The notes: a model not told the origin generated them from the letters alone. A DNA stretch of 64,000 nt from Candidatus Rokubacteria bacterium 13_2_20CM_69_15_1 (GCA_001914535.1 MNCR01000141.1:10262-74261); one strand, 5' to 3'; numbered from the stretch's first letter, positions 25,971-64,000 are shown. Program-made: numbers and translations.

Positions 25971-26503
25971 CCCGCCGGCTCGGCGAGCAGCGCGTCGACG
26001 TGGACCCGGACGACTCCGTCGGTGAGCGCGCCGACGTGCTTGGCGCGGATCCGCCCGCGCCGGTCGATGAAGAAGGTCTCCGGCACGCCGTACGTGCCGT
26101 AGTCCACCGAGACCTTGCCGCTCGGGTCGCGCGCGTTCGGGAAGGTCAGGCCGAAGTCCCGAACGAAGTTCTTGGCCGCCTCGGTCGTGTCCTGGATGTC
26201 CACGCCGATCACGACGACGCCCCGGTCGCGGTACGCCCGCCAGCTCCGCTCCAGGACGGGCGCCTCGTCGTAGCACGCGGGGTAGCACCACGAGGCCCAG
26301 AAATTGACGACCACGACGCGGCCGCGCTGGGCCTCGAGGGTGACGGGCGCGCCGTCGAAAGCGGTGAGCGTGAACGAGGGAGCGGGCCGGCCGACGAGCG
26401 GCGAGGGGATCTCGCGAGGATTCACGCGGAAGCCGTAGGCGAGCAGCGCCAGCACCGGCAGGGCCGAGGCGGGGATGAGCCAGCGCCACGCCCGACGACT
26501 CAC
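25967..26503 (-). CDS. ccmG: Thiol:disulfide interchange protein CcmG/DsbE (TlpA-like thioredoxin fold), atypical CYPAC site
   Basis: VVVNFWASWCYPACYDEAP and GVPETFFIDRRGRI. The active site is C-x3-C rather than C-x2-C, confirmed on the DNA at 26273-26287. Confidence 0.88.
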   Translation of the reverse strand: MSRRAWRWLIPASALPVLALLAYGFRVNPREIPSPLVGRPAPSFTLTAFDGAPVTLEAQRGRVVVVNFWASWCYPACYDEAPVLERSWRAYRDRGVVVIGVDIQDTTEAAKNFVRDFGLTFPNARDPSGKVSVDYGTYGVPETFFIDRRGRIRAKHVGALTDGVVRVHVDALLAEPAG

Positions 26504-28443: not shown

Positions 28444-28874
28444 CGCCCCGCCCCCTGGAGCGTGCGGATAAGCTCGCGATACCCGGCGGCGCTCGCGTCG
28501 TGGGGCGCCTTGTACTCCTCGGAGTGCTTGGCCAGGATGAGCCCGGCCCTGAAGTAGCCGTCGGCGCTCCACGTGCCTTCGACGACGGCGCCGCGGCCCT
28601 CGCCGAAGAGGTCGGGCGGCGTCCCCTTGTGGTGGACCGCCACCGTCGCGGTGCCGTCACCGAGAGTGAAACGCAGGTCGAGGGTGCGCGGCTCCCACGT
28701 CAGCGACCCGGGCACGACCAGGCCGCCGAGGCGGTACGCCTTCCCGGCGACGGCGGACGCGCGGAGCTCGGCGGGGGTGACGAAGTAGACGGCGGACTGC
28801 GTGACGCCCGCGTAGATCATGTAGGCGAGGGCGGCGGCGATGACGATGCCGCCGACGATGAACTTGGGCCTCAT
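28440..28874 (-). CDS. ccmE: Haem chaperone CcmE
   Basis: Membrane anchor, OB fold and LAKHSEEY, the haem-binding His region. Confidence 0.92.
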   Translation of the reverse strand: MRPKFIVGGIVIAAALAYMIYAGVTQSAVYFVTPAELRASAVAGKAYRLGGLVVPGSLTWEPRTLDLRFTLGDGTATVAVHHKGTPPDLFGEGRGAVVEGTWSADGYFRAGLILAKHSEEYKAPHDASAAGYRELIRTLQGAGR

Positions 28875-28884
28875 GGCACCCGGG

Positions 28885-29055
28885 TCATCGTTGCGGGGTC
28901 GACGGTCGGGTCCGAAGCTCGGCGCGCGCGGCCCCGCGCCGGTGCTCGAGCGCCGCCAGCTCTCGCTCCCGCCGGTTGAGCCGCCGCCAGTAGCCGCCGA
29001 GGACGAGCGCCGCGAGCCCGTAGGCGGCGAAGACGAAGGACCAATTGTCGCGCAT
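28885..29055 (-). CDS. ccmD: Haem exporter protein CcmD
   Basis: 56 aa, with one TM helix (WSFVFAAYGLAALVLGGYW) followed by a basic tail. It occupies the canonical position between ccmC and ccmE. Confidence 0.65.
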   Translation of the reverse strand: MRDNWSFVFAAYGLAALVLGGYWRRLNRRERELAALEHRRGAARAELRTRPSTPQR

Positions 29056-29711
29056 CAGGCGAGGACCTCCTGCTCCCGCTTCAGGAGACGCACGCGCTTG
29101 GCGACGAAGTAGCCATAGAGGAGCGCGAACGCGGCCAGATTGATCGTCAGGGCGGCGACGAACGTCGCGTCCATCGGGATGCTGCCGGGCCGGAGCACGG
29201 TCGGCGGCTGGTGTAGCGTCCGCCACCAGTACACCGAAAAGTGAACGAGCGGGATGTCGAGCGCCGCGACGATGCCGAGCACGGCGGCGAAGCGAGCCGC
29301 CTGCTCGCGATCCTCGAGCATCGCCCGCAGCAGCAGATAGGCCAGATAGATGACGAACATGATCGAGACGCTCGTGAGCCGTGCGTCCCAGGTCCACCAC
29401 GTGCCCCACGTCGGCTTGCCCCAGATCGATCCGGTCGCGATGTTGATGGCGGTGAAGATGACCCCGACCTCCGCCGAGGCGTGCGCGAGCCGGTCCGCTC
29501 CCGCGGCGCGGCGCCAGAGATAGGTCGTGGAGGCCACCAGCACGACGCCGAACGCCAGATAGGCGACGAGGATGGCGGGGACGTGCAGGTACATGATGCG
29601 CTGGACGTTGCCCTGCGTCGCCTCGCGCGGCGCGATGCCGAACGCCACCACCAGCCCCGCAGCCAGGCCGATCGCCGCCAACCATCCGAGCGCGCGCTGG
29701 GGGTCCTTCAT
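29055..29711 (-). CDS. ccmC: Haem exporter protein CcmC
   Basis: WGKPTWGTWWTWDARLT WWD motif, 218 aa. Confidence 0.92.
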   Translation of the reverse strand: MKDPQRALGWLAAIGLAAGLVVAFGIAPREATQGNVQRIMYLHVPAILVAYLAFGVVLVASTTYLWRRAAGADRLAHASAEVGVIFTAINIATGSIWGKPTWGTWWTWDARLTSVSIMFVIYLAYLLLRAMLEDREQAARFAAVLGIVAALDIPLVHFSVYWWRTLHQPPTVLRPGSIPMDATFVAALTINLAAFALLYGYFVAKRVRLLKREQEVLA

Positions 29712-30385
29712 GCTTCCAGGATGGCGTCGAAGGTCAGGACGCCGACGGTGAGATAGATCGCGTCGGCGGCCGCGAGGAGCCCGAGCCAGTGGGCGACCGT
29801 GTCGAGCGGCTCACCGCGCAGCACGGCCTCCGTCGCCTTCACCGCGCCCAGGAGCACGGGCACCTGCACCGGAAGCAGGAGGACGGGGAAGAGCAGCTCG
29901 CGCGCTCGGACGTGCGCCGTCATCGCGGCGAAGAGTGTGCCGACCGCGGCGAAGCCGATCGTGCCCAACCCGATGACGGCGGTCAGGCGGATCAGATGGG
30001 TCGCCAGGTCGATGTTGAAAAAGACGGCGAAGAGGACGAGCAGGATCGCCTCGACGAGCACCATCAGCACCAGATTGCCGGCGACCTTGCCGAGATAGAT
30101 CGCCGACTTGTCGCCGGGCATCATCACCAGGCCCTCCCAGCAGTCGTTCTCGCGCTCGGCCAGGAACGCCCGGCCCAATCCGACGAGGCCGCTCAAGATG
30201 AACCCGAGCCAGAGCAGACCCGGCAGGGCCGCGGTGAGGCGCTCGCGGTCGGCGCCGAGGGCGAACTGGAAGAGGAAGAGGAGCAGCAGCGCGAAGAAGA
30301 AGAGCGCGTTCAGCGTCTCCTTGGAGCGCCGTTCGCTGAGGAAATCCTTCCACAGCACGATCCAGGCGCGGCGCGCATAGATCAC
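29708..30385 (-). CDS. ccmB: Haem exporter permease CcmB
   Basis: 225 aa, six TM helices. GTG start with GTGA overlap to ccmA, in the expected position. Confidence 0.88.
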   Translation of the reverse strand: MIYARRAWIVLWKDFLSERRSKETLNALFFFALLLLFLFQFALGADRERLTAALPGLLWLGFILSGLVGLGRAFLAERENDCWEGLVMMPGDKSAIYLGKVAGNLVLMVLVEAILLVLFAVFFNIDLATHLIRLTAVIGLGTIGFAAVGTLFAAMTAHVRARELLFPVLLLPVQVPVLLGAVKATEAVLRGEPLDTVAHWLGLLAAADAIYLTVGVLTFDAILEA

Positions 30386-31101
30386 GGCCCGTCCTCCGCG
30401 TGGAGCTCGTAGAGCCGCCGCACGTCGTCGGGCGTGAGCGCGCCCAGGGGCGTGTCGAGCGCGACGCGTCCGGCCGCCAGGACCGCCATCCGGTCGGCGA
30501 CGGGGAGCCCACGGCCGAAGCTGTGCGTGGTCATGAGGAGCGCGCCGCCGGCCGCCTTGAACGCGCCCAGGTGCCCGTCGAGCCACTTTCCCGCCCGCTG
30601 GTCGATGCCCGCGAAGGGCTCGTCGAGAAGCAGCACGGACGGGCGGGCGAGGACGAAGCGGGCAAGCGCGAGCCGGCGCTTCATGCCCAGGGAGAACGTC
30701 CGCACGCGCTCGTCGGCGACCCGGTCCAGCTCCACGGCCGCGAGCGCGCCGCCCAGCGCTTCTCGGCTCCGCGGCAGCCCGCCGAGCGTCGCCCAGAATC
30801 GCAGATTCTCGAACGGGGTGAGGTCTTCGTACACCCACGCCCCGTGCGCGAGCAGCCCCACGTGCGCGCGGACCTCGGCCGTCTCCCGAAGACAATCGTA
30901 GCCGGCCACCCGCGCCGTGCCGCGCGACGGCCGCAGGAGCGTCGCCAGAATCCGGAGCAGTGTGGTCTTGCCCGCGCCGTTGGCGCCGAGGAGGGCGACG
31001 GCCTCTCCCGGACGAACCTCAAGGCTCACGTCGTCGAGCACGACGTGGGCTCCGAACGCCTTGCGGAGGCCGATCACCTGAATGGGTGGATCTAGCGCCA
31101 T
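30382..31101 (-). CDS. ccmA: Haem exporter ATPase CcmA (ABC)
   Basis: Walker A GANGAGKTT, signature-like FSLGMKRR and Walker B LLLDEP. Confidence 0.9.
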   Translation of the reverse strand: MALDPPIQVIGLRKAFGAHVVLDDVSLEVRPGEAVALLGANGAGKTTLLRILATLLRPSRGTARVAGYDCLRETAEVRAHVGLLAHGAWVYEDLTPFENLRFWATLGGLPRSREALGGALAAVELDRVADERVRTFSLGMKRRLALARFVLARPSVLLLDEPFAGIDQRAGKWLDGHLGAFKAAGGALLMTTHSFGRGLPVADRMAVLAAGRVALDTPLGALTPDDVRRLYELHAEDGP

Positions 31102-31192
31102 GCGTCGATCGACTCATTCTCACGTAGCGCCGGGGGCCGGTCAAGGAAGCGACGCGACGGGTCTCGACGACCCCGCCCGTCAACCCGACCCA

Positions 31193-32020
31193 TTAGCGCG
31201 CCGCATCGACGGTAAAGAATCGGTGGAGCAGAAGAATGACCGCCAGCATGTCGACCGCGCCGCCCCATCCCCACATCACGACCCCGCCGAGCGCCTGATC
31301 GTCCAGCGGACTGAGCCCCCCCGGCTCGGGCGACGCCGCGTATGAAGGATAGAGGATGCTCGGGCTCGCCGCGAGCAGGAGCCCGAGGGCCGCGCTCTGA
31401 AGCGCGCCCGTGACGAGATAGACGACGCGCAGGACGGGATGGGCGGATCTGGCGACATGGGGTGCGGGGTTGACGACGGGCCACCAGAAAAGGAGGGCAC
31501 CCGTGAAGAACGCGAGATGCTCGAGGTCGTGGAGGCGGCGATCGTCGAGCGCCGCTTCGTACGCCCACGGCAGATGCCAGAACCACAGGATCCCCGCGTA
31601 GCTGAGCCATGCGACGGGCATCCGCGTCAGGATCTGCCAGACGTACCGCACGGGCGCGCCGCGCACGAGGAGGCGGCCGGCCCGGACGCGGGCCCACGCC
31701 GGCAGGGCCCAGAAGAGCGCCGCCAACGGGTCGGCGAGGAGGAGGGCCGGCGCCGCGACGCTGACTAGCAGCATGTGCTGAACCATGTGGGCGGCGAAGC
31801 GGCGATGCGCGAGGGCGTCGAGACCGGAGAGGAGCGCCAGGGCGACGCTCCCGAGGCCGGCCAGGGTCAGGAGAGGTCGCCACCACGACACCCGTCGCCG
31901 GGCCCGTCGTGAGAGGCGCCACCAGCCGACGGCGTAGCCGCTCCCGACGAGCAGGAGCAGAGCCAGGATCGCCGGCCGGTGCGTCCCGATCAGCGGCGGA
32001 GGGCCAGGATCGTGACCCAC
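31193..32020 (-). CDS. ctaG: Cytochrome c oxidase assembly factor, Caa3_CtaG family
   Basis: Polytopic membrane protein with FAAHMVQHMLLVSVAAPALLLADP and WHLPW motifs. Start uncertain (GTG at 32020). Confidence 0.8.
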   Translation of the reverse strand: MGHDPGPPPLIGTHRPAILALLLLVGSGYAVGWWRLSRRARRRVSWWRPLLTLAGLGSVALALLSGLDALAHRRFAAHMVQHMLLVSVAAPALLLADPLAALFWALPAWARVRAGRLLVRGAPVRYVWQILTRMPVAWLSYAGILWFWHLPWAYEAALDDRRLHDLEHLAFFTGALLFWWPVVNPAPHVARSAHPVLRVVYLVTGALQSAALGLLLAASPSILYPSYAASPEPGGLSPLDDQALGGVVMWGWGGAVDMLAVILLLHRFFTVDAAR

Positions 32021-32082
32021 ACGAAGAAGGCGATGGTCCCCACGAGGAACAGGCCGAACGCGAGCTTCTCGACGGCGCTCAA
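31990..32082 (-). CDS. 30-codon hydrophobic micro-ORF (TTG start)
   Basis: My own translation is (M)SAVEKLAFGLFLVGTIAFFVWVTILALRR, a single TM helix with a basic C-terminus. It overlaps the annotated ctaG start by 31 nt. Confidence 0.25.
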   Translation of the reverse strand: MSAVEKLAFGLFLVGTIAFFVWVTILALRR

Positions 32083-32092
32083 GGACTCACCG

Positions 32093-32197
32093 CTAGAACA
32101 GTGAGACCAGACCCGACAGCGCGTTGAAGAGGATCTCGAACACCAGGACCGCCAGATTGAGAACTGCCAGGGACAGCAGGATGCGCTCGACGCTCAT
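32093..32197 (-). CDS. 34-codon hydrophobic micro-ORF
   Basis: MSVERILLSLAVLNLAVLVFEILFNALSGLVSLF, one TM helix. It starts 5 nt after the stop of the upstream gene. Confidence 0.3.
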   Translation of the reverse strand: MSVERILLSLAVLNLAVLVFEILFNALSGLVSLF

Positions 32198-32201
32198 CGC
32201 C

Positions 32202-32396
32202 CTAGGGTCCCACCGCGAGGCCGGGCCCGAGCCCGCCCCAGTACTTGAACACATAGTAGATGCCCCAGACGGCAAGGAGAGCGTAGACCACGAGCAGCCA
32301 CTTGTTCACGATGCCGTGATACGCGCGGATCTCTCCGCGGGCGTATTCCTCGACTGCGCCGTACTTTGGGTGGGGCTCAGGAGTGCCTTCGCTCAT
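32202..32396 (-). CDS. Small single-TM protein in the cbb3 cluster (CcoQ-like position)
   Basis: 64 aa, TM segment WLLVVYALLAVWGIYYVF. ATGA overlap with the upstream ccoS-like ORF. Confidence 0.5.
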   Translation of the reverse strand: MSEGTPEPHPKYGAVEEYARGEIRAYHGIVNKWLLVVYALLAVWGIYYVFKYWGGLGPGLAVGP

Positions 32397-32695
32397 GAGC
32401 GCGGGGCTTCGTTGGTACCGGGGTCCGCGAGCCCGGGTCGCTCCGTGGGTGGCCTGCGAAAGGAGCGCTGGGCTTCGTTGGTAGCGGGGTCCGCGAGCCC
32501 GGCTCGGTCCGTGGGTGGCCTGCCAGAGGAGCGCGGGGCTTCGTTCGCCTCGTCCTCCGCGTGGAGCACCTGGTGCTTGATCGCCTCAATGTTTCGGAAC
32601 GCCCCGCTCGTCGCGCCCCAGATGAAGGCGCTGAGGGCGGCCCCGCCCATGAGCAGCGCCACGACGAACTCGCCCAGGGTCAGATGCTCGAGCAT
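32393..32695 (-). CDS. ccoS: CcoS/FixS-like cbb3 maturation protein with repeat-derived C-terminal tail
   Basis: The N-terminal 45 aa (LGEFVVALLMGGAALSAFIWGATSGAFRNIE) fit the CcoS pattern. The remaining ~55 aa are two 22-aa repeats encoded by the 66-bp tandem repeat. Confidence 0.6.
   Translation of the reverse strand: MLEHLTLGEFVVALLMGGAALSAFIWGATSGAFRNIEAIKHQVLHAEDEANEAPRSSGRPPTDRAGLADPATNEAQRSFRRPPTERPGLADPGTNEAPRS
32397..32555 (-). repeat. Tandem repeat, ~2.4 units of 66 bp (variant of repeat family A), in-frame inside the ccoS-like ORF
   Basis: GGGCTTCGTT recurs at 32404, 32470 and 32536. The reverse complement contains GGCCACCCAC and aligns with the first ~45 nt of the 86-bp unit core. 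Confidence 0.8.
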
Positions 32696-32708
32696 ACGGC
32701 GGTCTCCT

Positions 32709-34364
32709 TTACTCCCGGATTCCGGGGTAGTAAACGCGCGGCCGGCGGCCGTTGGCCCGAGCCAGGCCGGCCGACTCGCGCTCGGGGTCGAGGGCCAGCC
32801 GCGGGTGGTCGGCGCGGACGTCGGGCGAGTTGAGCGACGCCTTGGCCTCGGGGGAGAGCTGGAGCTTCTGTCCGGTCAGCGGATCGGCCCACGCCGAGAA
32901 CGAGAGCACGAAGTACGAGATCGCCCAGCGCTCCGCCTCGTTCATCGAGTCGGCGAACGAGGGCATGGGCGTGCCGTCCAGCCCGAGCGTCATCGTACGG
33001 TAGATGTCGGTGACATCGGAGCCGCCCTTGAATTGCCCCTTCGTAAAGTCCGCGGGGCGGATCGGAAACTTGAGGTCGTCCTTGAGCTGATCGGCCGACG
33101 GTCCGTCGCCCCTGCCGGTATCGCCGTGGCACTCCCAGCACTTGGCCTTCACGTAGAGCTGCTTTCCGCGGGCGAGGAGCTCGGACGTGGCCGGCGGCGG
33201 CGTCGGGAGCACGACCGGCGGCTCCGGCTTCTCCTCCTTCCACCGTCGCGAGAAGGTCTTGATGTACGTGATGACCGCGAGCCGCGCTTTGTCAGGGACT
33301 TCATGCCACGTCGGCATCGCGGTCCAGCGGACGCCGCGCGTGACCGTGCGGAAGAGGTCGCCGTCGGTCGGCAGCGAGCCGGACGGCGTCGAGCGGAACT
33401 TGAACGCGCCGATCGTGAAGTCGCGCGGCCGCGGGGAGAGGAAGGTGGCGGCGAGGCCGTTGCCGTCGCCCTTCGCCCCGTGGCAGCCGATGCAGTGCTC
33501 CCCATATTCCTCTTTGCCACGGGCGACGAGGTCGGCGGATTGTGGAATCCTCATCACGGAGAACGCCACGTTCTGCGGCTCGAAGACCTCCCGCCACGCC
33601 CCGCGATTCGTGCCGAGCTTCTGCACATACCTGACGAGTCCGACGAGCTCCTTCGTCGGAACCACCAGGAGGACGGACGTGAGGGCGGGCGGCTTGTCGC
33701 CGAAGGGCGTCAGGTCGAGGACCGGCGTGCCGTCGATCGGGAGCTCGCCGTCGGGCCGCGGGCGCACGAACACCAGGCCCGTCTCGTTGGGGAAGAGCAG
33801 CACCGGCTTGTCCTTGTTCATCGTGAAGTATTGCGAGACGGCTGGCGTCGCGTCGAGCTCGAGCCCCCCAGCGCCCGTGCGCACGGGGACCCGGGTCTGC
33901 TCGAAGAGCCACTTGAAGCTGGGCATGATCGACTCGGGCACCACCAGTCGCGGATCCCAATGGTGGGCGTAGTGCCAGTCGTCGGCGTACTTGAGCCCCA
34001 CGCGCGTCAGGTCCGGTCCGATGCGTCGGGTGGAGAAGAGATGGGGGAGGTCGAAGGCGTACTCGCCGGCCTCGGAGACCGGCCCCCACCTGAGCTCCTC
34101 GCCGGCGACCGGCCGCACGTACTGGCTGTGGCAGTACCAGCACCCCTCGCGGATATACACGGCGCGCCCGAGCTTCTCGAGTGGCGTGTAATCGCTCGAC
34201 TCGTACCGCACCCACTTGATTTCCCCGAGGTCCGTTCGCACCGCGCGGCTGACTCGCTTCGTGCGGGACTCGGGCAGGATGGCGGGGAGAAAGCCCTGAA
34301 CGAAGATCGCCAGCGTCACGAAGCCGAATCCCGCCCCGATCGCGAGGGACTTGATCGATCTCAT
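32709..34364 (-). CDS. ccoO: cbb3-type oxidase subunit II (CcoO) fused to a dihaem CcoP-like cytochrome c domain
   Basis: N-terminal TM helix plus REGCWYCHSQYVRP (CcoO signature). Two further CXXCH motifs (CIGCH, CWECH) lie in the C-terminal ~300 aa. Confidence 0.88.
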   Translation of the reverse strand: MRSIKSLAIGAGFGFVTLAIFVQGFLPAILPESRTKRVSRAVRTDLGEIKWVRYESSDYTPLEKLGRAVYIREGCWYCHSQYVRPVAGEELRWGPVSEAGEYAFDLPHLFSTRRIGPDLTRVGLKYADDWHYAHHWDPRLVVPESIMPSFKWLFEQTRVPVRTGAGGLELDATPAVSQYFTMNKDKPVLLFPNETGLVFVRPRPDGELPIDGTPVLDLTPFGDKPPALTSVLLVVPTKELVGLVRYVQKLGTNRGAWREVFEPQNVAFSVMRIPQSADLVARGKEEYGEHCIGCHGAKGDGNGLAATFLSPRPRDFTIGAFKFRSTPSGSLPTDGDLFRTVTRGVRWTAMPTWHEVPDKARLAVITYIKTFSRRWKEEKPEPPVVLPTPPPATSELLARGKQLYVKAKCWECHGDTGRGDGPSADQLKDDLKFPIRPADFTKGQFKGGSDVTDIYRTMTLGLDGTPMPSFADSMNEAERWAISYFVLSFSAWADPLTGQKLQLSPEAKASLNSPDVRADHPRLALDPERESAGLARANGRRPRVYYPGIRE

Positions 34365-34380
34365 GGCGCGTCCACGCCCC

Positions 34381-35772
34381 TCACGCCGACCGCCGGGCGA
34401 GGGAGCCCTTCAGCAGGGTGTAGACCACGAGTGACATGCCGATGTCCATCGAGATCCCGGTGAACGTTCGCACCCACCAGTACGGGCGGATCGCGGTGAC
34501 CGTCTCCAGGAACTCACTCTGCGCCATGAGCATGTAGCCCTGCTGCAGCCCCTGCGCGCTGAGGACGAGCCCCATCGCCCCAATGCCGAGCGTGACGAGC
34601 CAGAATCCCCAGTTGGCGAGCGTGAAGCTCCAAAGCTCCGAGCCCGTGATCCGTGGCCAGACATAGATGGCGCCGGCGATCGCCCACACGACGAAAGTGC
34701 CGAAGACGGTCAGGTGCGAGTGGGAGATCACGAAGTCCGTGAAGTGAGTCGGCTGCTGGAGCGCGCGGAGCGCCTCGAGCGAGCCCTGAAAGCACCCGAC
34801 GAGGTACATGATGGAGCCCACGATCAGAAACTTGGCGGGGAGGTTCCGGCCGAACTCCTGCCACCGGCCGATCATGGTGCCGAAGAAGTTCTGGAGCACC
34901 GTCCACACCGGAATGATCAGCATCATAGAGGAGACGATGGCGATCGTCTCGGCCCAGTCGGCGATCGGAGAGTAGAGGTAATGGTGAATCCCGACGAACG
35001 GATAGAAGAATGCGAGGGACCAGAACCCGATCAGCGACAGCTTGTGGCTGTAGATCGGGTTCCGAACGCTGGCGGGGAGAAAATAATAGATGAGGACATA
35101 GCCCGCCGGCGTGATCCACAGCCCCACCACATAGTGGATGAACAGGCCGTGCCATGCCGCGTTGTTGATCCCGGGGATGTGGTACGGACCGAGCATCAGA
35201 AGGATGAGGTTCACGTCCGTCCAGACGAAGGCCGCGATGAGATACCAGAGCGAGACGTAGAGCGGGGCCTCCCGGCGGTTCTTGATCGTGATCAGGAACT
35301 GCGCGGTCAGGAAGAGGAGCGCCAGGAAGATGACGATGACATTGACGAGGGCGAACTCTCCCGCTTCCCAGCCGCGGTTCCAGCCACCCGCGAGGAGGAG
35401 GACCGCGACGGCCAGGTTCACGTTCCAGACCCAGATCAGCCAGTGGCTCCAGCGCTCGTTCCACAGCCTCACCCCGCAGAGGCGCGGCACGATGTAGTGG
35501 CAGAGACCGATGAAGAGGGTCGAAAACGCACCCCAGATCACGCCGTTGACGTGGATCGGACGGATCCGGCCGAAGGTGAGCCAGGGGTGACTGCCGAGAA
35601 ACTCCGGGTATGTGAACTTGGTGGACAGAATGACGCCCACGGTCGGAAAGAGAAGCAGCCAGAGGAACCCCGAGGCGAGCCACTTCCGGGTCAACTCCCG
35701 GTCGACGACGTCGTCGTTCAGGCGCCGTGCGTTCGCGATCCGCGCCTCCTCGGCCGGTCCGGTGCCGCCCAT
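34381..35772 (-). CDS. ccoN: cbb3-type cytochrome c oxidase subunit I
   Basis: 463 aa, 12 TM helices. Shows RPIHVNGVIWGAF and the His ligand pattern of C-family haem-copper oxidases. Confidence 0.93.
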   Translation of the reverse strand: MGGTGPAEEARIANARRLNDDVVDRELTRKWLASGFLWLLLFPTVGVILSTKFTYPEFLGSHPWLTFGRIRPIHVNGVIWGAFSTLFIGLCHYIVPRLCGVRLWNERWSHWLIWVWNVNLAVAVLLLAGGWNRGWEAGEFALVNVIVIFLALLFLTAQFLITIKNRREAPLYVSLWYLIAAFVWTDVNLILLMLGPYHIPGINNAAWHGLFIHYVVGLWITPAGYVLIYYFLPASVRNPIYSHKLSLIGFWSLAFFYPFVGIHHYLYSPIADWAETIAIVSSMMLIIPVWTVLQNFFGTMIGRWQEFGRNLPAKFLIVGSIMYLVGCFQGSLEALRALQQPTHFTDFVISHSHLTVFGTFVVWAIAGAIYVWPRITGSELWSFTLANWGFWLVTLGIGAMGLVLSAQGLQQGYMLMAQSEFLETVTAIRPYWWVRTFTGISMDIGMSLVVYTLLKGSLARRSA

Positions 35773-35818
35773 GCTCCCCCTCTCCTATCCGGACGTCGTG
35801 ACTGCCACCGTCGCTATA

Positions 35819-36685
35819 TCACGAGAAGCGGATCGGATGCGCGGCCTCGAATCGCTGCCCGCGGTTGTTCGTGAGGACGACCCGCACAAGGCCCTCGCTG
35901 TGGGCGCGGAGCCTGAACGCGATGAAGGGGTTATCGCTGAGCGCCGAGGTCAGCGTGAACTGGCTGATGGGCTCGTCTCCGTAGAAGACGTTCATCGCCG
36001 TGAGGTAGAGGGGCTCCCCGGCCTGGACGAACGTTCCCTCTCGAACCTCCAGGCCCGTTCGGCTCGGGTGCTTGGTCTTCACCTGGACGTCGATGGTCTC
36101 GTCGGGACCGATGCGACCATCCGCGATCAGCTGCGGGATCCGGATCGCCGGGGGACCGATCTCGTCGGGGCCGCTGCGGCCGGACGGCGGTGCGGTCCCG
36201 GCGCAGCCACCCGCGCCCTCGGGGATCGTGATCGACTGCGTGGTGTGCCAGCGGGCGTGGCGACTGCACTCGGCCGTCGCCGCGACCTCGGAGGCGCCAT
36301 GGTCCAGCCGGATCTGGAAGGCGATGTAGACCTGACCGTTCAGCGGCCCGAAGTTGAATATGCCCTTCAGGGGGACGGGGTCGCGCTCGTTCACGACGCT
36401 GATACGCGTGATGTAGTGACCCGGCTCCATCGGGTGGGACATCTCGACGGCGACCGGGACCTTGGCTCCGTTGCTGGTGAAGCTCGGCAACTTGAGTCTC
36501 GGCGAGTGGAGGCCTTCGGACGGCGGGAGCGCACCGGGACCGGCGCCGTGCACTGGCACGGGTTCGGAGCGGACGAAGACGCGACGAATTTCCCCCGCCG
36601 CGACCAGCCCCACGGCCGCCGGCACGACGCCCAGGAAGCTGCGTCTGGATAGCCGCCGCGGCCGTGAGGCGGGTTGCGGGCTCAT
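35819..36685 (-). CDS. Fused SoxY-SoxZ sulfur-carrier-like protein, Tat-exported
   Basis: SRRSFLG twin-arginine signal. SoxY-like region P-FTSNGAKVPVAVEMSHPMEPGHYITRISVV..NFGPLNGQVYIAFQIRL ending in GGCAG (36197-36211). SoxZ-like region IRIPQLIADGRIGPDETIDVQVKTKHPSRTG...SDNPFIAFRLR follows. Confidence 0.85.
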   Translation of the reverse strand: MSPQPASRPRRLSRRSFLGVVPAAVGLVAAGEIRRVFVRSEPVPVHGAGPGALPPSEGLHSPRLKLPSFTSNGAKVPVAVEMSHPMEPGHYITRISVVNERDPVPLKGIFNFGPLNGQVYIAFQIRLDHGASEVAATAECSRHARWHTTQSITIPEGAGGCAGTAPPSGRSGPDEIGPPAIRIPQLIADGRIGPDETIDVQVKTKHPSRTGLEVREGTFVQAGEPLYLTAMNVFYGDEPISQFTLTSALSDNPFIAFRLRAHSEGLVRVVLTNNRGQRFEAAHPIRFS

Positions 36686-44674: not shown

Positions 44675-45612
44675 CGTTGGTCGCGTTCCTCTTCCCCGGC
44701 CAGGGCTCGCAGGCGGTCGGGATGGGCAAGGAGTTCCACGCGACCTCCGCGCGCGCCAAGGCGGTCTTCGAGGAGGCGAACGAGGCGCTCGGCTTCGACC
44801 TGGCCCGACTCATGTTCGAGGGGCCGGAGGCGGAGCTCGCGCTGACCGCCAACACCCAGCCCGCCGTCCTCACCGCGTCCGTCGCCATGGCCGCCGCGTG
44901 CGCCGAGCGAGGGCTCACGCCCGCGCTCGCCGCGGGACACAGCCTGGGGGAATACTCCGCGCTCGTGGTCGCGCGCGCCCTCCGATTCGGCGACGCGGTG
45001 CGCATCGTGCGCAAACGCGGCGAGTTCATGCAGGACGCGGTGCCGGTCGGGACCGGCGCGATGGCGGCGATCATGGGGCTCGACCTGGCCGCGGTCGAGC
45101 AGGTGTGCGCGGAGGCGGCGAAGGGCGAGGTCGTTGGGGTCGCCAACGTGAACTCGGCGCAGCAGATCGTCGTCGCAGGCCACCGCGCCGCGGTGGAGCG
45201 CGCCGTCGCGCTCGCCACCGCCCGGGGCGGTAAGAAGAGCGTCATGCTCCCGGTGAGCGCGCCCTTCCACTGCGCGCTCATGGCGCCGGCCGCCGAGAAG
45301 CTCGCCCGCGAGCTCGGCGGGGTCTCGGTCGCCGATCCCGCGATCCCCGTCGTGCGGAACGTCGATGCGGGCGTCACCCGCACGGCGGCGGAGGTGAAGC
45401 CTTTTCTCCTCAGGCAGGTGGCGAGCCCGGTCCGCTGGGCCGACTGCGTCAAGCGCGTCGCGGCCGAGGGGGCCTCGACCTTTGTCGAGATCGGGCCAGG
45501 GCGCGTGCTGACCGGGCTCCTCAAGCGCACCGTCGACGGCGCCCGGGGACTCTCGGTCGAAGACCCGGCGGGGCTCGAGCGGGCGCTCGCTGCGGTCGAG
45601 GCGCGCGCGTGA
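44671..45612 (+). CDS. fabD: Malonyl-CoA:ACP transacylase
   Basis: [12 protein letters not shown] and [10 protein letters not shown]. Confidence 0.95.
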
Positions 45613-46336
45613 GCGTGGCAGCGCAGAAGGGCCCCCTCGACGGCCGCGTGGCGATCGTCACCGGCGGCAGCCGTGGCATCGGCGTCGTGATCGCGGCGTT
45701 GCTGGCCGAAGACGCCGCCGCCGTGGTAGTCTCGGGCCGCGATGCGGCCCGGCTCCAGCGCATCGCGAAGGAACTGGAGGCGCATGGCGGTGCGGTTCCG
45801 AGCGCCTGGTCGACGCAGCCAAGCAGCGGTTCGGCCGCGTCGACATCCTCGTCAACAACGCCGGCGTCATTCGCGACGGTCTCCTCGTCCGTATGAAGGA
45901 CGAGGACTGGGACCATGTCATGGAAGTCAACCTCCGCGGCGCGTTCCTCATGACGCGCGCGGCGACGAAGCTCATGATTCGGCAGAAGAGCGGCGGCCGG
46001 GTCATCAACATCGCGTCGACGTCGGGCGCCATGGGCAATGCGGGGCAGGCGAACTACTCCGCGGCGAAGGCGGGGCTCATCGGGTTCACGAAAGCGGCGG
46101 CGCGCGAGCTGGCGCACTGGTCCATTCTGGTCAACGCCGTCGCGCCGGGGCTGATCGAGACGGACATGACCGCCGCGCTCTCCCCGGAGGCGCGCGAGGC
46201 GCTGCTCGCGCAGGTGCCGCTCAAGCGTGTCGGGACGCCTCGCGAGGTCGCCGAGGTGGTACGATTCCTCGCCGGAGACGGGGCCGCCTACATCACGGGC
46301 CAGGTGTTCCACGTCAACGGCGGGCTGTACATGTAG
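45609..46336 (+). pseudogene. fabG: 3-oxoacyl-ACP reductase FabG interrupted by a frameshift (internal deletion)
   Basis: Frame A (45609-45896) encodes TGGSRGIG...[10 protein letters not shown], then nonsense and a TGA. Frame B carries [22 protein letters not shown]...YSAAKAG...HVNGGLYM to 46336. The 728-nt span is not divisible by 3. Confidence 0.8.
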
Positions 46337-46605: not shown

Positions 46606-47874
46606 GTGGACGCGCGGCGGGTTGTCGTCACCGGGCTCGGGGCGCTCACGCCGATGGGGAACACCGCGGACGAGTTCTGGTCCGCGCTGAAGCAGGCGCG
46701 CTCGGGTGTCGGCCCGATCACCAAGTTCGACGCGCACGTCAAGAACGCGCAGGGCGAGTTCCTCTACCCGACCCGGATCGCGGCCGAGGTACGGAACTTC
46801 GACCCGCTGAAGTACGTGGACAAGAAGGAGGCGCGGCGCCTCGACCAGTTCCTCCAATACGCGATGGCCTGCAGCGTGATGGCTGTCGAGGACGCCGGGC
46901 TCGACATCGCGAAGGTGAACGGCGATCGCTTCGGCGTGCTGATCGGCTCGGGGATCGGCGGTATCCAGACCCTGCTCTCCAACCACGACACGCTGCGGGA
47001 AAAGGGACCGGACCGCGTGTCGCCCTTCTTCATCCCGATGATGATCGTCAATATGGCGTCGGGGCTTGTGTCCATGCGTTTCGGCGCGAAGGGGCCGAAC
47101 TCGGCGGTCGTGACCGCCTGCGCGACCGGCAACCACGCGATCGGCGACGCGCTCAGGCACATCCAGCGGGGCGACGCGGACGTCATGATCGCGGGCGGCG
47201 CCGAGGCGATCATCATCCCGCTGACGATCGCTGGGTTCTGCGCGATGAAGGCGATGTCCACCCGCAACGGCGAGCCGGGGAAGGCGTCGCGGCCCTTCGA
47301 CGCCGGCCGCGACGGCTTCGTCTGCGGCGAGGGCGGGGGCGTGCTCGTGCTCGAGTCGCTCGACCACGCCGTCCGCCGCGACGGGCGGATCTACGCGGAG
47401 ATCATCGGGTATGGACTGACCGGCGACGCGCACCACATGACCGCGCCCGACCCCGAGGGAGACGGGGCGGCACGCGCGATGGCGGCCGCCCTGGCCGACG
47501 CGCGGCTCGGCGCCTCCGACGTCGGGTACATCAACGCGCACGGGACGTCTACGGTGTACAACGACCGGTTCGAGACGCTCGCGATCAAGCGCGTCTTCGG
47601 CGAGCACGCCCGGCGCGTCGCCGTCTCGTCCACGAAGTCCATGACGGGCCATCTCCTGGGCGCCGCCGGCGGCGTCGAGGCGATCGCGACTGTGCTCGCC
47701 CTGCACCACGGCGTCCTGCCGCCGACGATCAACTACGAGACACCGGATCCGGACTGCGACCTCGACTACGTGCCGAATCAGGCGCGCAAGGTGGATGTCG
47801 AGATCGCACTCTCGAACGCGTTTGGCTTCGGCGGCACGAACGCCACGCTCGTCTTCCGCAAGTACCTCAAGTAG
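46606..47874 (+). CDS. fabF: Beta-ketoacyl-ACP synthase II
   Basis: [22 protein letters not shown] and the [16 protein letters not shown] motifs. Confidence 0.95.
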
Positions 47875-48317
47875 TGGATCCCGTCCGCGTGGCGGAGCTC
47901 GAGCGCCGGCTCGGCCACCGCTTCCGCGACCCGGCGCTCCTCGAACGGGCGCTCACTCATGCCTCGTACGCGAACGAGCACCCGTCGACGCGCGACCACG
48001 AGCCGCTCGCGCTGCTCGGCGACGCCGCGCTCGGACTCGTCATCGCGGAGCACCTGCTCGCCGCCGACCCCGACGCGCCCGTCGGCGTGCTGACGCCCCG
48101 CCGCGCCGAGCTCGTGTCGGGCGAGCGCCTCGCGCGCTGGGCGGCCGAGCTCGACCTCGGCGCGATCGTGCGCCTCGGTCGGGGCGAGGCGCAGACAGGC
48201 GGGCGGACACGCGTGTCGATCCTCGCCACGGCGCTCGAGGCGCTCCTCGGCGCGATCTACCTCGAGGGAGGCCTCGAGGCGGTGCGGCGCGTGATCGGCC
48301 GTCTGGCGCTGTGGTAG
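47874..48317 (+). CDS. rnc: RNase III catalytic-domain-only protein (no dsRBD)
   Basis: LGHRFRDPALLERALTHASY, then EPLALLGDAAL (signature region) and ILATALEALLGAIYLEGG. 147 aa. The next gene starts 10 nt later, so there is no room for a dsRBD. Confidence 0.8.
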   Translation: MDPVRVAELERRLGHRFRDPALLERALTHASYANEHPSTRDHEPLALLGDAALGLVIAEHLLAADPDAPVGVLTPRRAELVSGERLARWAAELDLGAIVRLGRGEAQTGGRTRVSILATALEALLGAIYLEGGLEAVRRVIGRLALW

Positions 48318-60116: not shown

Positions 60117-60938
60117 GTGACGGCGCCCTCGCTCCACCCCGACCCGTGGCGCGACGTCGACGCGCAGCCCGACGCGGCGAAGCTGGCCGCCTCGCTGGAG
60201 CTGCGCGGGCGCACCCCGACCCAGGCGCGCCTGCGAGGGCGATTCCTGCGCTTCGTTCCCATCCGCCCCGGCGACGCGATCCTCGAGGTGGGCTGCGGCA
60301 CAGGGGTCGTCATCCGTGACCTCGCCGCGATCGCGGGCCCGCGCGGGAGCGTCGTCGGCGTTGACCCGAGCCGCCTGATCCTGCGCGAGGCGCGGAAGCG
60401 ATGCCGGGGTGCGCGCAGCCGGGTCACGCTGCGCGAGGCGGACGGCGCCGCGCTGCCGTTCAAGGGCGGCCGCTTCGACGCCGTGCTCGCGATCACCGTG
60501 ATCCTGCACGTCGCCGACCCGCTGCGCGTCGTCGCGGAGATGGCGCGCGTCACCCGGCGCGGCGGCCGCGTCGGGGTCCAGGACCAGGACTTCGGGACCG
60601 TCGCCGTGACCCACGCGGATCGCGCGCTGACCGACCGCATCATGCGCGGGGTCGCGGCACACATCTACGCCGAGCCTGACAGTGGCCGCCGGCTCCCCGG
60701 TTTGCTCCGTCAGGCCGGGGTCCAGGACGTGCGGCTCCTCACCGACGTCTACCAGGACACGACCCTCGAGCCCTGGACGAAGACCTTCCTGGAGCGTCGC
60801 GCCGAGCACGCGGTGAGGTTCGGCATCGTGGACGCGTCGACGGCGCGGCGCTGGCTCGACGGCTTCACGGAGCTCGTCGCTCGGGGCGCGTTCGTGCTGA
60901 CGATGAATTACTACGGCGCCGTGGGCGTCACGCGGTGA
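60117..60938 (+). CDS. Class I SAM-dependent methyltransferase
   Basis: ILEVGCGTGV motif I and the later RFDAVLAI. Confidence 0.88.
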   Translation: MTAPSLHPDPWRDVDAQPDAAKLAASLELRGRTPTQARLRGRFLRFVPIRPGDAILEVGCGTGVVIRDLAAIAGPRGSVVGVDPSRLILREARKRCRGARSRVTLREADGAALPFKGGRFDAVLAITVILHVADPLRVVAEMARVTRRGGRVGVQDQDFGTVAVTHADRALTDRIMRGVAAHIYAEPDSGRRLPGLLRQAGVQDVRLLTDVYQDTTLEPWTKTFLERRAEHAVRFGIVDASTARRWLDGFTELVARGAFVLTMNYYGAVGVTR

Positions 60939-61825
60939 GGGGCCCGCTCGCCTTCGTCCGCGTCGTCGCACTCGCCGCCCTGGCACTCGGTGCGGGCCCG
61001 GTGCGGCCCGCGCCGCCGTTCGACGGCGCCGCAGCTCTGCGTCACGTCGAGCGTGTCGTGGCGCTCGGGCCGCGGCCGGCCGGCTCGCCGGCGTCCGCGC
61101 GGACGCGCGCGTACATCCTGGGCGAGCTGCGCGCCGCCTCCATCGCAACCCGAGTCGAGCCCTTCGAGGCCGCCACGCCCCACGGCCGCCTCAAGATGGC
61201 CAACGTCGTCGCCGTCCTGCCGGGGCGTCGGCCCGACGTGATCCTGATCGGTGGCCACTACGACACGAAGTGGTTCCCGGACATCCCCTTCGTCGGCGCC
61301 AACGATGGCGGCTCGAGCACGGCGCTCCTGATCGAGCTCGCCCGGGCGCTGGCGGCGCAGCCCCATGAGTTCGCGTACTGGATCGTCTGGTTCGACGGCG
61401 AGGAGGCGCGCGAGTCGTGGAGCGCGACCGACAGCCTCTACGGCTCGCGCTGGATGGCCCGGGAGCTCGCGCGCACGGGAAGACTCCCCCGCGCCGTGCT
61501 CGTCGCCGACATGATCGGCGACCGCGACCTCGGGATCCGCCGCGAGTCGTTCTCGACCGACTGGCTCACGGACATTCTCTGGACGGCCGCCGCGCGGCGG
61601 GGCTTCGGGGCGCACTTCCTCCCCGGCGCCCTGGCAGTCGAAGACGACCACGCGCCCTTCCTGCGCGCGGGAGTGCCGGCGGCGCTCCTGATCGACTTCG
61701 ACTACCCGCCCTGGCACACCGCCGGGGACACGCTCGACAAACTCTCGTCGCGGAGCCTCGCGATCGTCGGCGGCGTGCTGCTCGAGGCGCTGCCCGCGAT
61801 CGAGGAGCGGCTCCTGCGAAAGTGA
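60935..61825 (+). CDS. M28-family peptidase / glutaminyl-cyclase-like protein
   Basis: Signal peptide. GGHYDT, ANDGGSSTALLIELAR, FDGEE and DMIGD metal-ligand pattern. Confidence 0.88.
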   Translation: MRGPLAFVRVVALAALALGAGPVRPAPPFDGAAALRHVERVVALGPRPAGSPASARTRAYILGELRAASIATRVEPFEAATPHGRLKMANVVAVLPGRRPDVILIGGHYDTKWFPDIPFVGANDGGSSTALLIELARALAAQPHEFAYWIVWFDGEEARESWSATDSLYGSRWMARELARTGRLPRAVLVADMIGDRDLGIRRESFSTDWLTDILWTAAARRGFGAHFLPGALAVEDDHAPFLRAGVPAALLIDFDYPPWHTAGDTLDKLSSRSLAIVGGVLLEALPAIEERLLRK

Positions 61826-61843
61826 GCGAGGTATAATTCCGCC

Positions 61844-62386
61844 ATGCCACGCGTGCGCGAGATCGACGACCCCGGCGACGATCCGATCCTCAAGGAGATC
61901 TTCGCCAAAGAGCTCGAGACGTTCGGCTTCGTCCTCAACACGACGAAGGTCCAGGCGCACACGCCCGGGATCATGAAGGCGGCCAAGCAGCTCTCCGCGG
62001 CCGTCGACCGGTCGGGCCTGCTCGCGAAGGAGCTCCTCGCACTCGTCTACTTGCGCGTCGCGCTGATCAACGGGTGCCCCTTCTGAATTGACGTCAACGC
62101 ATCCCGGGGGATGCAGGCCGGCGCGTCCGCGGCGAAGATCGCTCAGGTCGAGCGCGCAGCCGTCAGCGATCTCTTCTCGGCCGGCGAGAAGGCCGCGATC
62201 GCGTACGCCGAAGCGATCACGGCCACGGGACAGAAGGTGGACGACGCACTGTTCGCGCGAGTGCGCGAACACTTCTCCGAGCCCGAGATCGTCGAGCTGA
62301 CCGCGGCCGCCGCGCTGGAGAACTTCCGCAGCAAGTTCAACACGGCGCTCGGCATCGAGGCGCAGGGATTCTGCGTCCTCAGGTAG
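61844..62386 (+). CDS. AhpD-like/carboxymuconolactone-decarboxylase-family protein with in-frame TGA (candidate selenocysteine, CPFU)
   Basis: The two ORFs (61844-62086 and 62111-62386) are in the same frame. The TGA at 62084-62086 falls where the family has the second Cys of LINGC-x-x-C. Read through, the protein is 180 aa. Confidence 0.6.
62099..62114 (+). promoter_or_regulatory. SECIS-like hairpin GCAUCC-CGGG-GGAUGC downstream of the in-frame UGA
   Basis: Perfect 6-bp stem with a G-rich tetraloop, starting 13 nt after the UGA. The flanking GACG...CGTC could extend the stem. Confidence 0.4.
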
Positions 62387-62432
62387 TTACGCCCCGCTGA
62401 CCCGCCCCGCAGCGACGGCAGGAACCGGCTCT

Positions 62433-62477
62433 GGTTGCGCGGGGGTTGCGGCCGGTTGCCTTGACAGCCCTGGTTGC
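62433..62477 (+). repeat. Four direct GGTTGC hexamers (spacing 11, 10, 18 nt) around a TTGACA box upstream of the TIR gene
   Basis: GGTTGC at 62433, 62444, 62454 and 62472. TTGACA at 62461-62466. Confidence 0.4.
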
Positions 62478-62506
62478 CCCACGTCACGCTATGCCCGAGC
62501 GCGTGC

Positions 62507-63286
62507 ATGAAGGTGTTCATCAGCTGGTCGGGGTTGCGGAGTCACCAGATCGCGCTGGCCCTCCGTGATTGGTTGCCCACGGTCTTGCCTCACGCCGTGC
62601 CGTGGGTCTCTTCAGAGGACATTCCCAAAGGGGCACGCTGGACCATCGCCCTGGGCTCGGAGCTTGAGGCGACTAGGTTCGGCATCATCTGCCTGGTCCC
62701 GGAGAACCTGGGCGAGCTCTGGATCGTCTTCGAGGCCGGGGCGATGTCGCGGTCAATCGACGCGGCGCGCGTCGCTCCGTTCCTGGTGGGCGTCGGCATC
62801 AAGGACGTTCCGGGGCCGTTGGCGCAGTTCCAGTGCACGGTTTTCGAGAAGGAGGACGTGCGGAAGCTCGTGCACAGCATCAACAAGGCCTCCGACGCGC
62901 CGATGGATCAGAGGCGTCTCGATCAAGCCTTCGATCGCGGCTGGCCAGATCTCGCAGATCTTGTTCATGGAATCGAGAAGGTCGGGTCGCGGGCGGCCGT
63001 GGTAGAGGAACCCGCCGCGCCCCACAAGGATCTCTTCAGGGATCCCGAGAGCCTGCCCAAGGAGCAGCTCGCGATCTTGACGGTGCTTGCCAAGAACCCC
63101 GATGCCGACCCCACGGCAAACATGGTGGCGCGCGCGATCGGCGAGAATCCGACGCGGACCGAATACCACCTGGATCGCCTGAGAGAACGCCGCCTGATCG
63201 ATCACCGCCTCGTCGTGGGCGAGCCTCCCGCCTATTATCTGACAAAGGCGGGGAGAGCCTACGTCGTGGAGAACAATTTGATCTAA
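62507..63286 (+). CDS. TIR-like domain protein fused to a C-terminal winged-helix domain
   Basis: MKVFISWSG..S..IALALRDWL...PWVSSEDIPKGARW...FGIICLVPENL...WIVFEAGA is the prokaryotic TIR-like pattern with the conserved Glu. The C-terminal LAILTVLAKNP...MVARAIGENPTRTEYHLDRLRERRLI looks like a wHTH. Confidence 0.75.
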   Translation: MKVFISWSGLRSHQIALALRDWLPTVLPHAVPWVSSEDIPKGARWTIALGSELEATRFGIICLVPENLGELWIVFEAGAMSRSIDAARVAPFLVGVGIKDVPGPLAQFQCTVFEKEDVRKLVHSINKASDAPMDQRRLDQAFDRGWPDLADLVHGIEKVGSRAAVVEEPAAPHKDLFRDPESLPKEQLAILTVLAKNPDADPTANMVARAIGENPTRTEYHLDRLRERRLIDHRLVVGEPPAYYLTKAGRAYVVENNLI

Positions 63287-64000
63287 ATCGGTCGGCTGCT
63301 TGCCGGCCGCTCGCTGGTCATCGGATCGGCGCCGTCCTGCGGCATCCACCGGGCATACACGCGGAGGAGCACGCTAGCTGATCGCCACCCGCCCTGCTGC
63401 TGGACGTAGAGCAAGGGCGCGTTCCTGGACAGCATCGTGCTAGCGAAAGTGTGACGCAACTGCTCAGGGGCGCGGTAGCGCACGTTCGCGGCCAAGAGCA
63501 CACGGCGCCACGCCCGGTGTAGCTCCATCGAGGAGCGCGGCGTCCGGCCACGCCCGAAGACGAAGGCTTCCGGGTCCATCGAGCGGATGGTGAGCCGGCG
63601 CAGTGCGGTTACAGCGGATCGGGCCTCTGTCGTCGAGCCTGGGCGCCAGTCTGGCGTGTCGTCAGTGACGGGGTGAAGGAACGAGACCTTGCGTGCGAGC
63701 CCAGTCTTCGGTGGACCAAGACGATGCCGGCTCCACGTACGCTGAACGAGAGCCGTGCCGGCTTCGAGATCGACGTCCTGCCATTGGAGTCCGCACACCT
63801 CACCAGCTCGCATCCCTGATTGGGCCCACACGTGAAGCAGCGCCGCGAAGTCAGGGTCGATCCGTCGCGCCGCGGCGAGTAGCGCACGGAGCTCCGGGCC
63901 CGAGAACGGGTCAACCTGGTCAATGCGCTGCGCCCCGCGCCACTCGATTTCCTTGATGGGATTGGCGGTGAGGACCTTCATGCGCACCGCGCGTTGCAGG
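63283..64000 (-). CDS. Tyrosine recombinase/phage-type integrase, 5' end outside the window
   Basis: Catalytic domain with GMRAGEVCGLQWQDVDL, LRHTFAS, GGWRS and VYARW. The frame stays open to position 64000. Confidence 0.88.
   Translation of the reverse strand, partial: LQRAVRMKVLTANPIKEIEWRGAQRIDQVDPFSGPELRALLAAARRIDPDFAALLHVWAQSGMRAGEVCGLQWQDVDLEAGTALVQRTWSRHRLGPPKTGLARKVSFLHPVTDDTPDWRPGSTTEARSAVTALRRLTIRSMDPEAFVFGRGRTPRSSMELHRAWRRVLLAANVRYRAPEQLRHTFASTMLSRNAPLLYVQQQGGWRSASVLLRVYARWMPQDGADPMTSERPASSRPI

Follow-up and report, generated by a model that had tools for sequence, protein, structure and literature searches.

An in-frame UGA in an AhpD/YciW-like gene of Rokubacteria, followed by a conserved RNA hairpin, is very probably decoded as selenocysteine

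Selenoproteins with an AhpD-like redox centre of the type CxxU, in which selenocysteine (Sec, U) takes the place of the second cysteine, were described in 2005 from the Sargasso Sea, where AhpD-like proteins and proteins with a carboxymuconolactone decarboxylase (CMD) domain accounted for 27 and 4 sequences, respectively (Zhang, Fomenko & Gladyshev, PMC1088965). In the Global Ocean Sampling (GOS) data, the families AhpD-like 1 (COG2128, 299 sequences) and AhpD-like 2 (pfam02627, 70 sequences) were reported in 2008 (Zhang & Gladyshev, PMC2398784), and a 2026 review lists several AhpD-type selenoprotein families, TIGR01926 being entered there as "AhpD-like protein" (PMC13188914). Here we analyze a stretch of 64,000 nucleotides from Candidatus Rokubacteria bacterium 13_2_20CM_69_15_1 (GCA_001914535.1 MNCR01000141.1:10262-74261), referred to below as the window, which contains a gene of the CMD/AhpD superfamily with an in-frame TGA at the second cysteine of the redox centre. 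We consider it very probable that the UGA at 62084-62086 is decoded as Sec and that the gene encodes a genuine selenoprotein of this superfamily. This claim is graded as supported and not as proven, the search for Sec machinery having covered the window and its flanks. An earlier note on this DNA had named AhpD-like CxxU proteins among the families of bacterial selenoproteome surveys, and the two marine studies document them.

The gene occupies 61844-62386 on the plus strand as a single reading frame of 180 codons and a TAG stop codon (62384-62386), and its sole in-frame TGA is codon 81, in the context ...VALINGCPF-TGA-IDVNASRGMQAG... The 543 nt with both halves in one frame are thus as the earlier note had read them. 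The TGA and the hairpin downstream of it are identical in five independent assemblies with 97.6-99.8% identity to the window, one of which is NCBI GCA_001914885.1, whose contig MNDJ01000147.1 reaches 99.8%. The sequence of the gene is present in at least 20 soil metagenome runs, and contigs from four of these runs show no variant at the TGA or at the hairpin. A sequencing error is ruled out by the agreement of five independent assemblies and four metagenome runs on the TGA. A reassigned genetic code was also considered and rejected, since TGA is the stop codon most used in the window, ending 32 of 47 genes with Pfam support.

Orthologues were scanned with one genome per GTDB species, and 453 loci encoding relatives were obtained. 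The best 80 of these 453 loci, with amino acid identities of 64-83%, belong nearly all to metagenome-assembled genomes (MAGs) labelled Candidatus Rokubacteria, Rokuibacteriota or Methylomirabilota. When the 83 loci that were fetched and the window are counted together, the codon after NGCPF is TGA in 84 of 84 loci, and no Cys orthologue of the Rokubacterial clade occurs among these 84 genomes. The part before the TGA comprises 80 codons in 79 of 82 genes, and beyond it the frame stays open for 96-108 codons in 81 of 82. Codons 1-80 have ratios of nonsynonymous to synonymous substitution (dN/dS, Nei-Gojobori) of 0.22-0.26, and codons 82-180 have ratios of 0.33-0.37; therefore the part downstream of the TGA is translated and under selection. 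Relaxed selection or frameshifts past the TGA in relatives, which the earlier note had proposed to look for, are not seen in over 80 relatives: frameshifts are absent and selection is purifying. A marine homologue from a Tara Oceans contig (L089, 48% identical) likewise has TGA in its DNA, and its database translation gives W at this codon.

In four soil runs, metatranscriptome contigs of at least 99% identity extend across both the UGA and the hairpin without any change in either, which indicates that the gene is expressed and that its mRNA retains the UGA. These contigs, of low depth only, cover the selenoprotein gene and not the M28 peptidase gene upstream of it. A protein search of 5.8 billion proteins gave 676 matches, most of them 99-residue fragments that start directly after the TGA (MDINASRGM...); other entries are N-terminal fragments ending in ...LINGCPF, and a few "full-length" entries have W or G at codon 81. 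When the window and all flanks were scanned for further in-frame TGAs with coding signal on both sides, no other candidate selenoprotein emerged. In one MAG contig (L048:6122-6230), the 3' end of the selenoprotein gene occurs a second time after a run of N, which looks like a scaffolding artefact.

The residue replaced by the TGA is a conserved cysteine in homologues. With Cys placed at codon 81, the Pfam CMD profile (PF02627) is matched over its whole length by residues 41-124 (E 1.4e-12, 47.9 bits against a cut-off of 23). A profile search of 1.84 billion representatives detected 8056 homologues, and among the 120 full-length sequences in the top 150, position 81 is Cys in 115 and position 78 is Cys in 112, the motif of the subfamily being C-x-[FWY]-C-[ILVM]-D. 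In the alignment with the AhpD protein PA0269 from Pseudomonas aeruginosa (E 7e-16), the TGA falls on Cys51, and INGC-PF-U stands opposite INGC-AY-C. The earlier note had assigned the TGA to the second Cys of an AhpD-like CxxC motif and had called this residue the resolving Cys; the position stands, the role probably does not. The second Cys of the CxxC motif in AhpD from Mycobacterium tuberculosis (Cys133) is usually described as the attacking nucleophile and not as the resolving residue, and a Sec at that position therefore fits better than the "resolving" wording.

An AF2 model of the orthologous protein P0001 (79% identical; predicted local distance difference test, pLDDT, 82.5) superimposes on PA0269 with a template modelling (TM) score of 0.89-0.93 and a root-mean-square deviation of 1.4-1.6 Å, and its top Foldseek matches are PA0269 and Atu0492 (TMt 0.88-0.93), followed at greater distance by the debrominase Bmp8 and other AhpD-like proteins. 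The model thus predicts the all-helical AhpD fold. The best match in NCBIfam is NF053654, "YciW-related (seleno)protein", which is covered from profile position 1 to 175 of 179 with 135.8 bits and an E of 1.3e-39, whereas its cut-off lies at 310 bits; TIGR01926, peroxidase-related enzyme, is matched with 54.5 bits, below the cut-off of 81.8. Homologues with Cys score 111-142 bits on NF053654 and are likewise under the cut-off. Since the window protein stays under the curated cut-offs and its Cys relatives do so too, these scores place it in a sister clade, as a relative and not a member of the NF053654 equivalog. Judged in this way, the clade is related to YciW and to "peroxidase-related" proteins and has no curated model of its own.

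The hairpin begins at the 13th nucleotide after the TGA, the spacer being 12 nt long (62087-62098). Its 5' arm GCAUCC (62099-62104), loop CGGG (62105-62108) and 3' arm GGAUGC (62109-62114) form a perfect stem of 6 bp, located exactly where the earlier note had drawn it, and the AUG of Met90 (62111-62113) sits within the 3' arm. It is the centroid structure, with -9.2 kcal/mol. In the published model for bacterial selenocysteine insertion sequences (bSECIS), the loop measures 3-9 nt and has a G in its first two positions, the upper stem has 4-16 bp, the loop starts 16-37 nt after the UGA, and the minimum free energy (MFE) is at most -7.5 kcal/mol (PMC13188914). Checked by hand, the hairpin agrees with this model on every count, with a loop of 4 nt, a stem of 6 bp, G at loop position 2, a spacing of 18 nt and the energy given above. 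The compatibility with a bacterial selenocysteine insertion sequence (SECIS) that had been suggested for it is thus borne out by the published model, and constraint at synonymous sites is found in addition.

This constraint was evaluated on the 101 codons that offer roughly one synonymous site or more, and the mean synonymous diversity of the gene is 0.475. Diversity is below 0.05 only at codons 86 (0.007) and 87 (0.0), both in the 5' arm: Ala86 is GCA in 73 of 73 sequences, although GCA makes up only 2% of the Ala codons elsewhere in the genes of the family, and Ser87 is TCC in 81 of 81. In 73 sequences, Gly89 is encoded by GGG. Arg88 has its third base in the loop and varies freely (CGG 32, CGT 37, CGC 8, AGG 4), and its synonymous diversity of 0.63 is among the highest. 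The pair that would extend the stem downwards is U-A in 26 sequences, C-G in 19 and mismatched in 28, including the C/A of the window. In nine loci with the peptide S-S-R-G-L, the arms GCAUCC/GGAUGC are lost and a different hairpin, UCCCGC-GGUCU-GCGGGA, appears with a shift of 3 nt, reaching 9 bp in one locus (L046). The marine homologue L089 has yet another hairpin, UUCGUUC-CGUGC-GAACGAA, at the same place (+14 to +32). An RNA structure at 62099-62114 is conserved beyond what the protein sequence demands.

Several observations weigh against the decoding of this UGA as Sec, and they concern the hairpin, the databases and the Sec machinery. The hairpin is not more stable than dinucleotide shuffles (z of +1.13 for 62 nt and +0.53 for 45 nt) in this DNA of 70% GC, and therefore thermodynamics is not used as evidence and its significance is taken from the comparison between genomes only. 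RNAalifold applied to a mixed alignment of all 75 distinct sequences gives no hairpin, because the nine sequences of the S-S-R-G-L form are incompatible with the main form; applied to each of the two forms separately, it recovers the hairpin. The six core pairs are nearly invariant in the main form and thus speak neither for nor against the stem, and classical covariation amounts to one pair plus the two alternative forms. No SECIS-like family was found in Rfam, either in the window at the gathering score or in 62040-62200 at E<=10. Position 81 reads G, S or L in the database proteins P0001, P0002, P0003 and P0008. A Pfam scan of 50 open reading frames (ORFs) in the 64-kb window detected no selA, selB or selD, and ARAGORN found no tRNA-Sec in the window, which has no tRNA gene at all, or in 60 flanking loci. 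A tblastn search with SelD from E. coli, a query checked against PDB 3U0O, gave no match in 1.2 Mb of window and flanking loci. For Sec machinery in this organism, indirect support at the level of the phylum comes from the literature, in which a wealth of selenoproteins has only recently been reported for Methylomirabilota (PMC13188914, PMC13582414). In the 2026 review, a Methylomirabilota MAG with 63 predicted selenoprotein genes is credited to Deng et al., Cell Rep 45:116760 (PMC13188914), and Sec-containing [NiFeSe] hydrogenases in Methylomirabilota are described in another paper from 2026 (PMC13582414).

Absent Sec machinery in the sequence available (window and flanks) could also mean that the UGA is recoded, but not to Sec, either by a hairpin-stimulated read-through with a near-cognate tRNA for Trp or Cys or by use of UGA as a sense codon, and some pipelines do translate codon 81 as W or G. 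We regard this as very unlikely. UGA serves as a normal stop in the window, the position is that of a catalytic Cys in homologues, as is classical for Sec/Cys pairs, and the redox centre would be lost with Trp or Gly in that place; moreover, the geometry of the hairpin and the G in its loop are as in SelB-binding elements, and related families are known selenoproteins. A split gene, in which the UGA is a true stop, a second polypeptide starts at codon 82 or at Met90, and the resulting chains of 80 and 91-99 residues assemble into an AhpD-like fold, appears extremely improbable. Some loci, a minority, do have ATG as codon 82 (the fragments beginning MDINASRGM...), but in 71 of 81 sequences, including the window, the codon is ATY for Ile and cannot serve as a start. 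Met90 is conserved in 73 of 81, yet its AUG is buried in the 3' arm of the hairpin without a Shine-Dalgarno sequence before it, and a start there would not explain why the residues of codons 82-89 rank among the best conserved of the protein. The two ORFs annotated by gene callers would, in addition, be separated by a break that cuts the CxxC centre exactly where homologues have Cys. A nonsense-mutated AhpD-like pseudogene with a hairpin by chance, the alternative named in the earlier note, would account for a locus that gene callers treat as broken, for hundreds of fragments of 80 and 91-99 residues in public databases and for a hairpin stability unremarkable in DNA of such GC content, but its probability is practically nil, excluded as it is by a TGA identical in all 84 species-level genomes with no frameshifts or extra stops, by a downstream half that does not evolve neutrally, by frozen synonymous sites in the hairpin arm and by transcription of the gene in soil.

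If the UGA is decoded as Sec, the hairpin would act as a bacterial SECIS while the ribosome sits on the UGA. By analogy with SelB-dependent systems, it would bind the complex of SelB, GTP and Sec-tRNA(Sec) and bring this complex to the A site, where release factor 2 competes, and the protein would contain selenium. The redox centre C78-P-F-U81 would lie at the N-terminal end of one of the alpha-helices in the AhpD fold, with Sec81 as the likely nucleophile against a peroxide, a sulfenic acid or the disulfide of a partner. Cys78 would resolve the adduct to a selenenylsulfide, which a thiol reductant or thiol system would recycle; cycle and substrate are proposed here by analogy.

In PA0269, Glu36 and His55 of the proton relay are said to be essential or invariant (PMC3141380). 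The relay residues Glu36/Tyr50/His55 align with Ala66/Phe80/Asn85 in the window protein, and the Glu/His relay is thus absent. At position 85, the 120 homologues have Gly in 57 cases, Asn in 32 and His in only 8. A low pKa of the selenol would lessen the need for a proton relay. Asp83 of the motif C-x-[FWY]-C/U-x-D, as its conservation suggests, is a candidate catalytic acid/base in place of the classical Glu/His relay of AhpD, and Cys177 may serve as a second resolving thiol; model confidence is low at residues 171-180, the region of Cys177 (pLDDT 53). Both residues lie outside the classical catalytic set of AhpD. As the 84 genomes contain no Cys orthologue, the Glu/His relay is missing, C-x-F-U-x-D is invariant and a third Cys is conserved, the clade may represent a distinct, obligately selenium-dependent enzyme and not a peroxidase that recycles AhpC, possibly acting together with conserved neighbours and possibly translated from a leaderless mRNA. 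We put this forward tentatively and consider it rather unlikely.

In the case of the promoter, TATAAT is exact in 37 of 84 loci, and most others have variants that are close by eye (TAGAAT, TATACT, AATAAT), whereas loci without the -10-like box carry a GGAGG Shine-Dalgarno sequence instead. This pattern suggests a leaderless mRNA in most Rokubacteria and an mRNA led by a Shine-Dalgarno sequence in others, and the -10-like box of the window gene probably gives rise to an mRNA of the leaderless kind. As a -35 element is lacking, a generic promoter and terminator scan of 60800-62700 detected nothing. The coordinates of all features are collected in Table 1.

Table 1. Features of the predicted selenoprotein gene and of the DNA directly around it (window coordinates)
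Feature	Position	Strand	Remarks
Predicted AhpD/YciW-like selenoprotein, coding sequence	61844..62386	+	180 residues, Sec at 81; same architecture in 83 orthologous loci
Redox motif C78-P79-F80-U81 (TGC CCC TTC TGA)	62075..62086	+	Aligned with Cys48-Ala-Tyr-Cys51 of PA0269
UGA very probably read as selenocysteine, codon 81	62084..62086	+	TGA in 84/84 orthologous loci
Putative bacterial SECIS-type hairpin within the coding sequence	62099..62114	+	bSECIS geometry, synonymous constraint, alternative hairpins at the same place
Asp83 of C-x-[FWY]-C/U-x-D	62090..62092	+	Invariant in two alignments; near-universal among 120 homologues
Cys177 (GFC), third conserved Cys near the C-terminus	62372..62374	+	Invariant in two alignments; 92/120 homologues
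-10-like promoter box GGTATAATT (also given as GGTATAAT; TATAAT at 61832-61837)	61830..61838	+	6 nt before ATG, in DNA of 70% GC
TIR_2-domain protein	62474-63286	+	Present in the window only
Tyrosine recombinase	63283-63987	-	Downstream of the selenoprotein gene

Conserved neighbours of the gene encode the M28 peptidase (upstream in 66 of 78 loci), an S-adenosylmethionine (SAM) methyltransferase, two small ORFs and a NUDIX hydrolase. No ahpC adjoins the selenoprotein gene, and the sole gene of the AhpC/TSA family in the window (25967-26503) lies 36 kb away in a ccm cluster. Synteny with relatives stops at the stop codon of the gene, and GC drops to 0.66 in 62387-63987. Contigs L085, L086 and L088, from other samples, terminate at about 62422, and integrase homologues or remnants are found in convergent orientation past the stop codon in about 10 other loci (L039, L047, L051, L060 and L064; fragments in L001, L004, L048, L054 and L065). 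The region past the stop codon may represent a variable island; alternatively, a recombinase gene of long residence may be decaying there. ARAGORN called unusually long "tRNA-Thr" genes of 95 and 87 nt at L054:9736-9830, directly upstream of the selenoprotein gene, and at L049:6549-6635; their anticodons are CGT and GGT, they are not tRNA-Sec, and both calls are probably false positives.

Elsewhere in the window, the ccm genes belong to a respiratory and maturation cluster on the minus strand (25967-36685), which comprises a CcmG-like thiol-disulfide oxidoreductase (AhpC/TSA family), CcmF, CcmE, CcmC and an ABC ATPase, then CtaG, a FixO/cytochrome c fusion, a COX1-family oxidase subunit and a SoxY-SoxZ fusion that also matches Desulfoferrodoxin. 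The fabG gene for a short-chain dehydrogenase (45603-46336) is frameshifted upstream of about 45830, its N-terminal part lying in one frame and its C-terminal 147 residues in another; this is either an assembly error or a pseudogene in an otherwise intact plsX-fabH-fabD-fabG-acpP-fabF cluster. A gene for RNase III (47874-48317, plus strand) encodes 147 residues with a complete catalytic domain and no double-stranded-RNA-binding domain, that is, either a Mini-III-like enzyme or the product of a truncated gene, and a gene for an M50 peptidase follows after 10 nt. A c-di-GMP-I-GGC riboswitch aptamer (16460-16540, plus strand; 69.7 bits against a gathering score of 59) is located upstream of an ORF of 162 amino acids (16512-17000) and a response-regulator gene (16997-17566). 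An IS110-family transposase gene (10093-11361, minus strand; DEDD_Tnp_IS110 and Transposase_20) is inserted among genes of acyl-CoA metabolism.

The most direct consequence concerns annotation, as hundreds of database entries are fragments of 80 and of 91-99 amino acids, named "alkylhydroperoxidase family enzyme", or have W or G at the active site, whereas the true product of the gene would be a selenoprotein of 180 residues. A lineage-wide, well-supported selenoprotein would thereby be added to the Rokubacteria/Methylomirabilota, abundant uncultured bacteria of soil and groundwater. The compact putative SECIS, with a 6-bp stem and a tetraloop, exists in three natural variants and could be used to test the minimal needs of SelB binding. 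If the mRNA is truly leaderless, it would be a naturally occurring example of SelB/SECIS decoding without a leader.

In comparison with described systems, the gene of the window would join a type of selenoprotein that is already known: Sec in an AhpD-like CxxC centre has been documented since 2005, and no general concept is changed. With the metagenomic AhpD-like and CMD selenoproteins it shares the Pfam CMD domain, a CxxU motif in which Sec stands for the second Cys, the many Cys homologues and a SECIS-type hairpin just past the UGA whose small apical loop contains a G. The families of 2005 and 2008 come mainly from marine reads, whereas the clade of the window is from soil and groundwater, mostly Rokubacteria, and has C-P-F-U-I-D. 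NF053654 GroundWater_YciW is its best curated match, over the full length, and is annotated with Sec and Cys forms, although the score of the window protein (135.8 bits) remains far from the cut-off of 310. PA0269 (PDB 2IJC, 2O4D, 7XW1; PMC3141380) is the closest solved structure, with about 30% identity and an E of about 1e-15, and has INGC-x-[FY]-C/U at the same helix N-terminus; unlike the window protein, it has 145 amino acids without the N-terminal extension of 40 residues, Cys in place of Sec, and the Glu36/Tyr50/His55 relay. AhpD from M. tuberculosis (PDB 1KNC, 1GU9), the alkylhydroperoxidase that recycles AhpC, shares the all-helical fold and a redox centre of CxxC type, but it is a distant structural match (Foldseek E 0.17-0.9, 12-14% identity), and the gene of the window has neither an adjacent ahpC nor the Glu/His relay. 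Measured by its sequence against AhpD in the strict sense, as represented by M. tuberculosis AhpD and PA0269, the protein would thus have the CxxC redox pair in the form C78-P-F-U81 and lack both the relay and the partnership with ahpC. The putative SECIS resembles the fdhF type of E. coli and the bSECIS consensus (PMC13188914) in being a stem-loop within the coding sequence 3' of the UGA, with a small apical loop, G in the first two loop positions and a distance within 16-37 nt, and it differs from the fdhF type in being very short (6-7 bp with a tetraloop) and in having no bulged U in the MFE fold.

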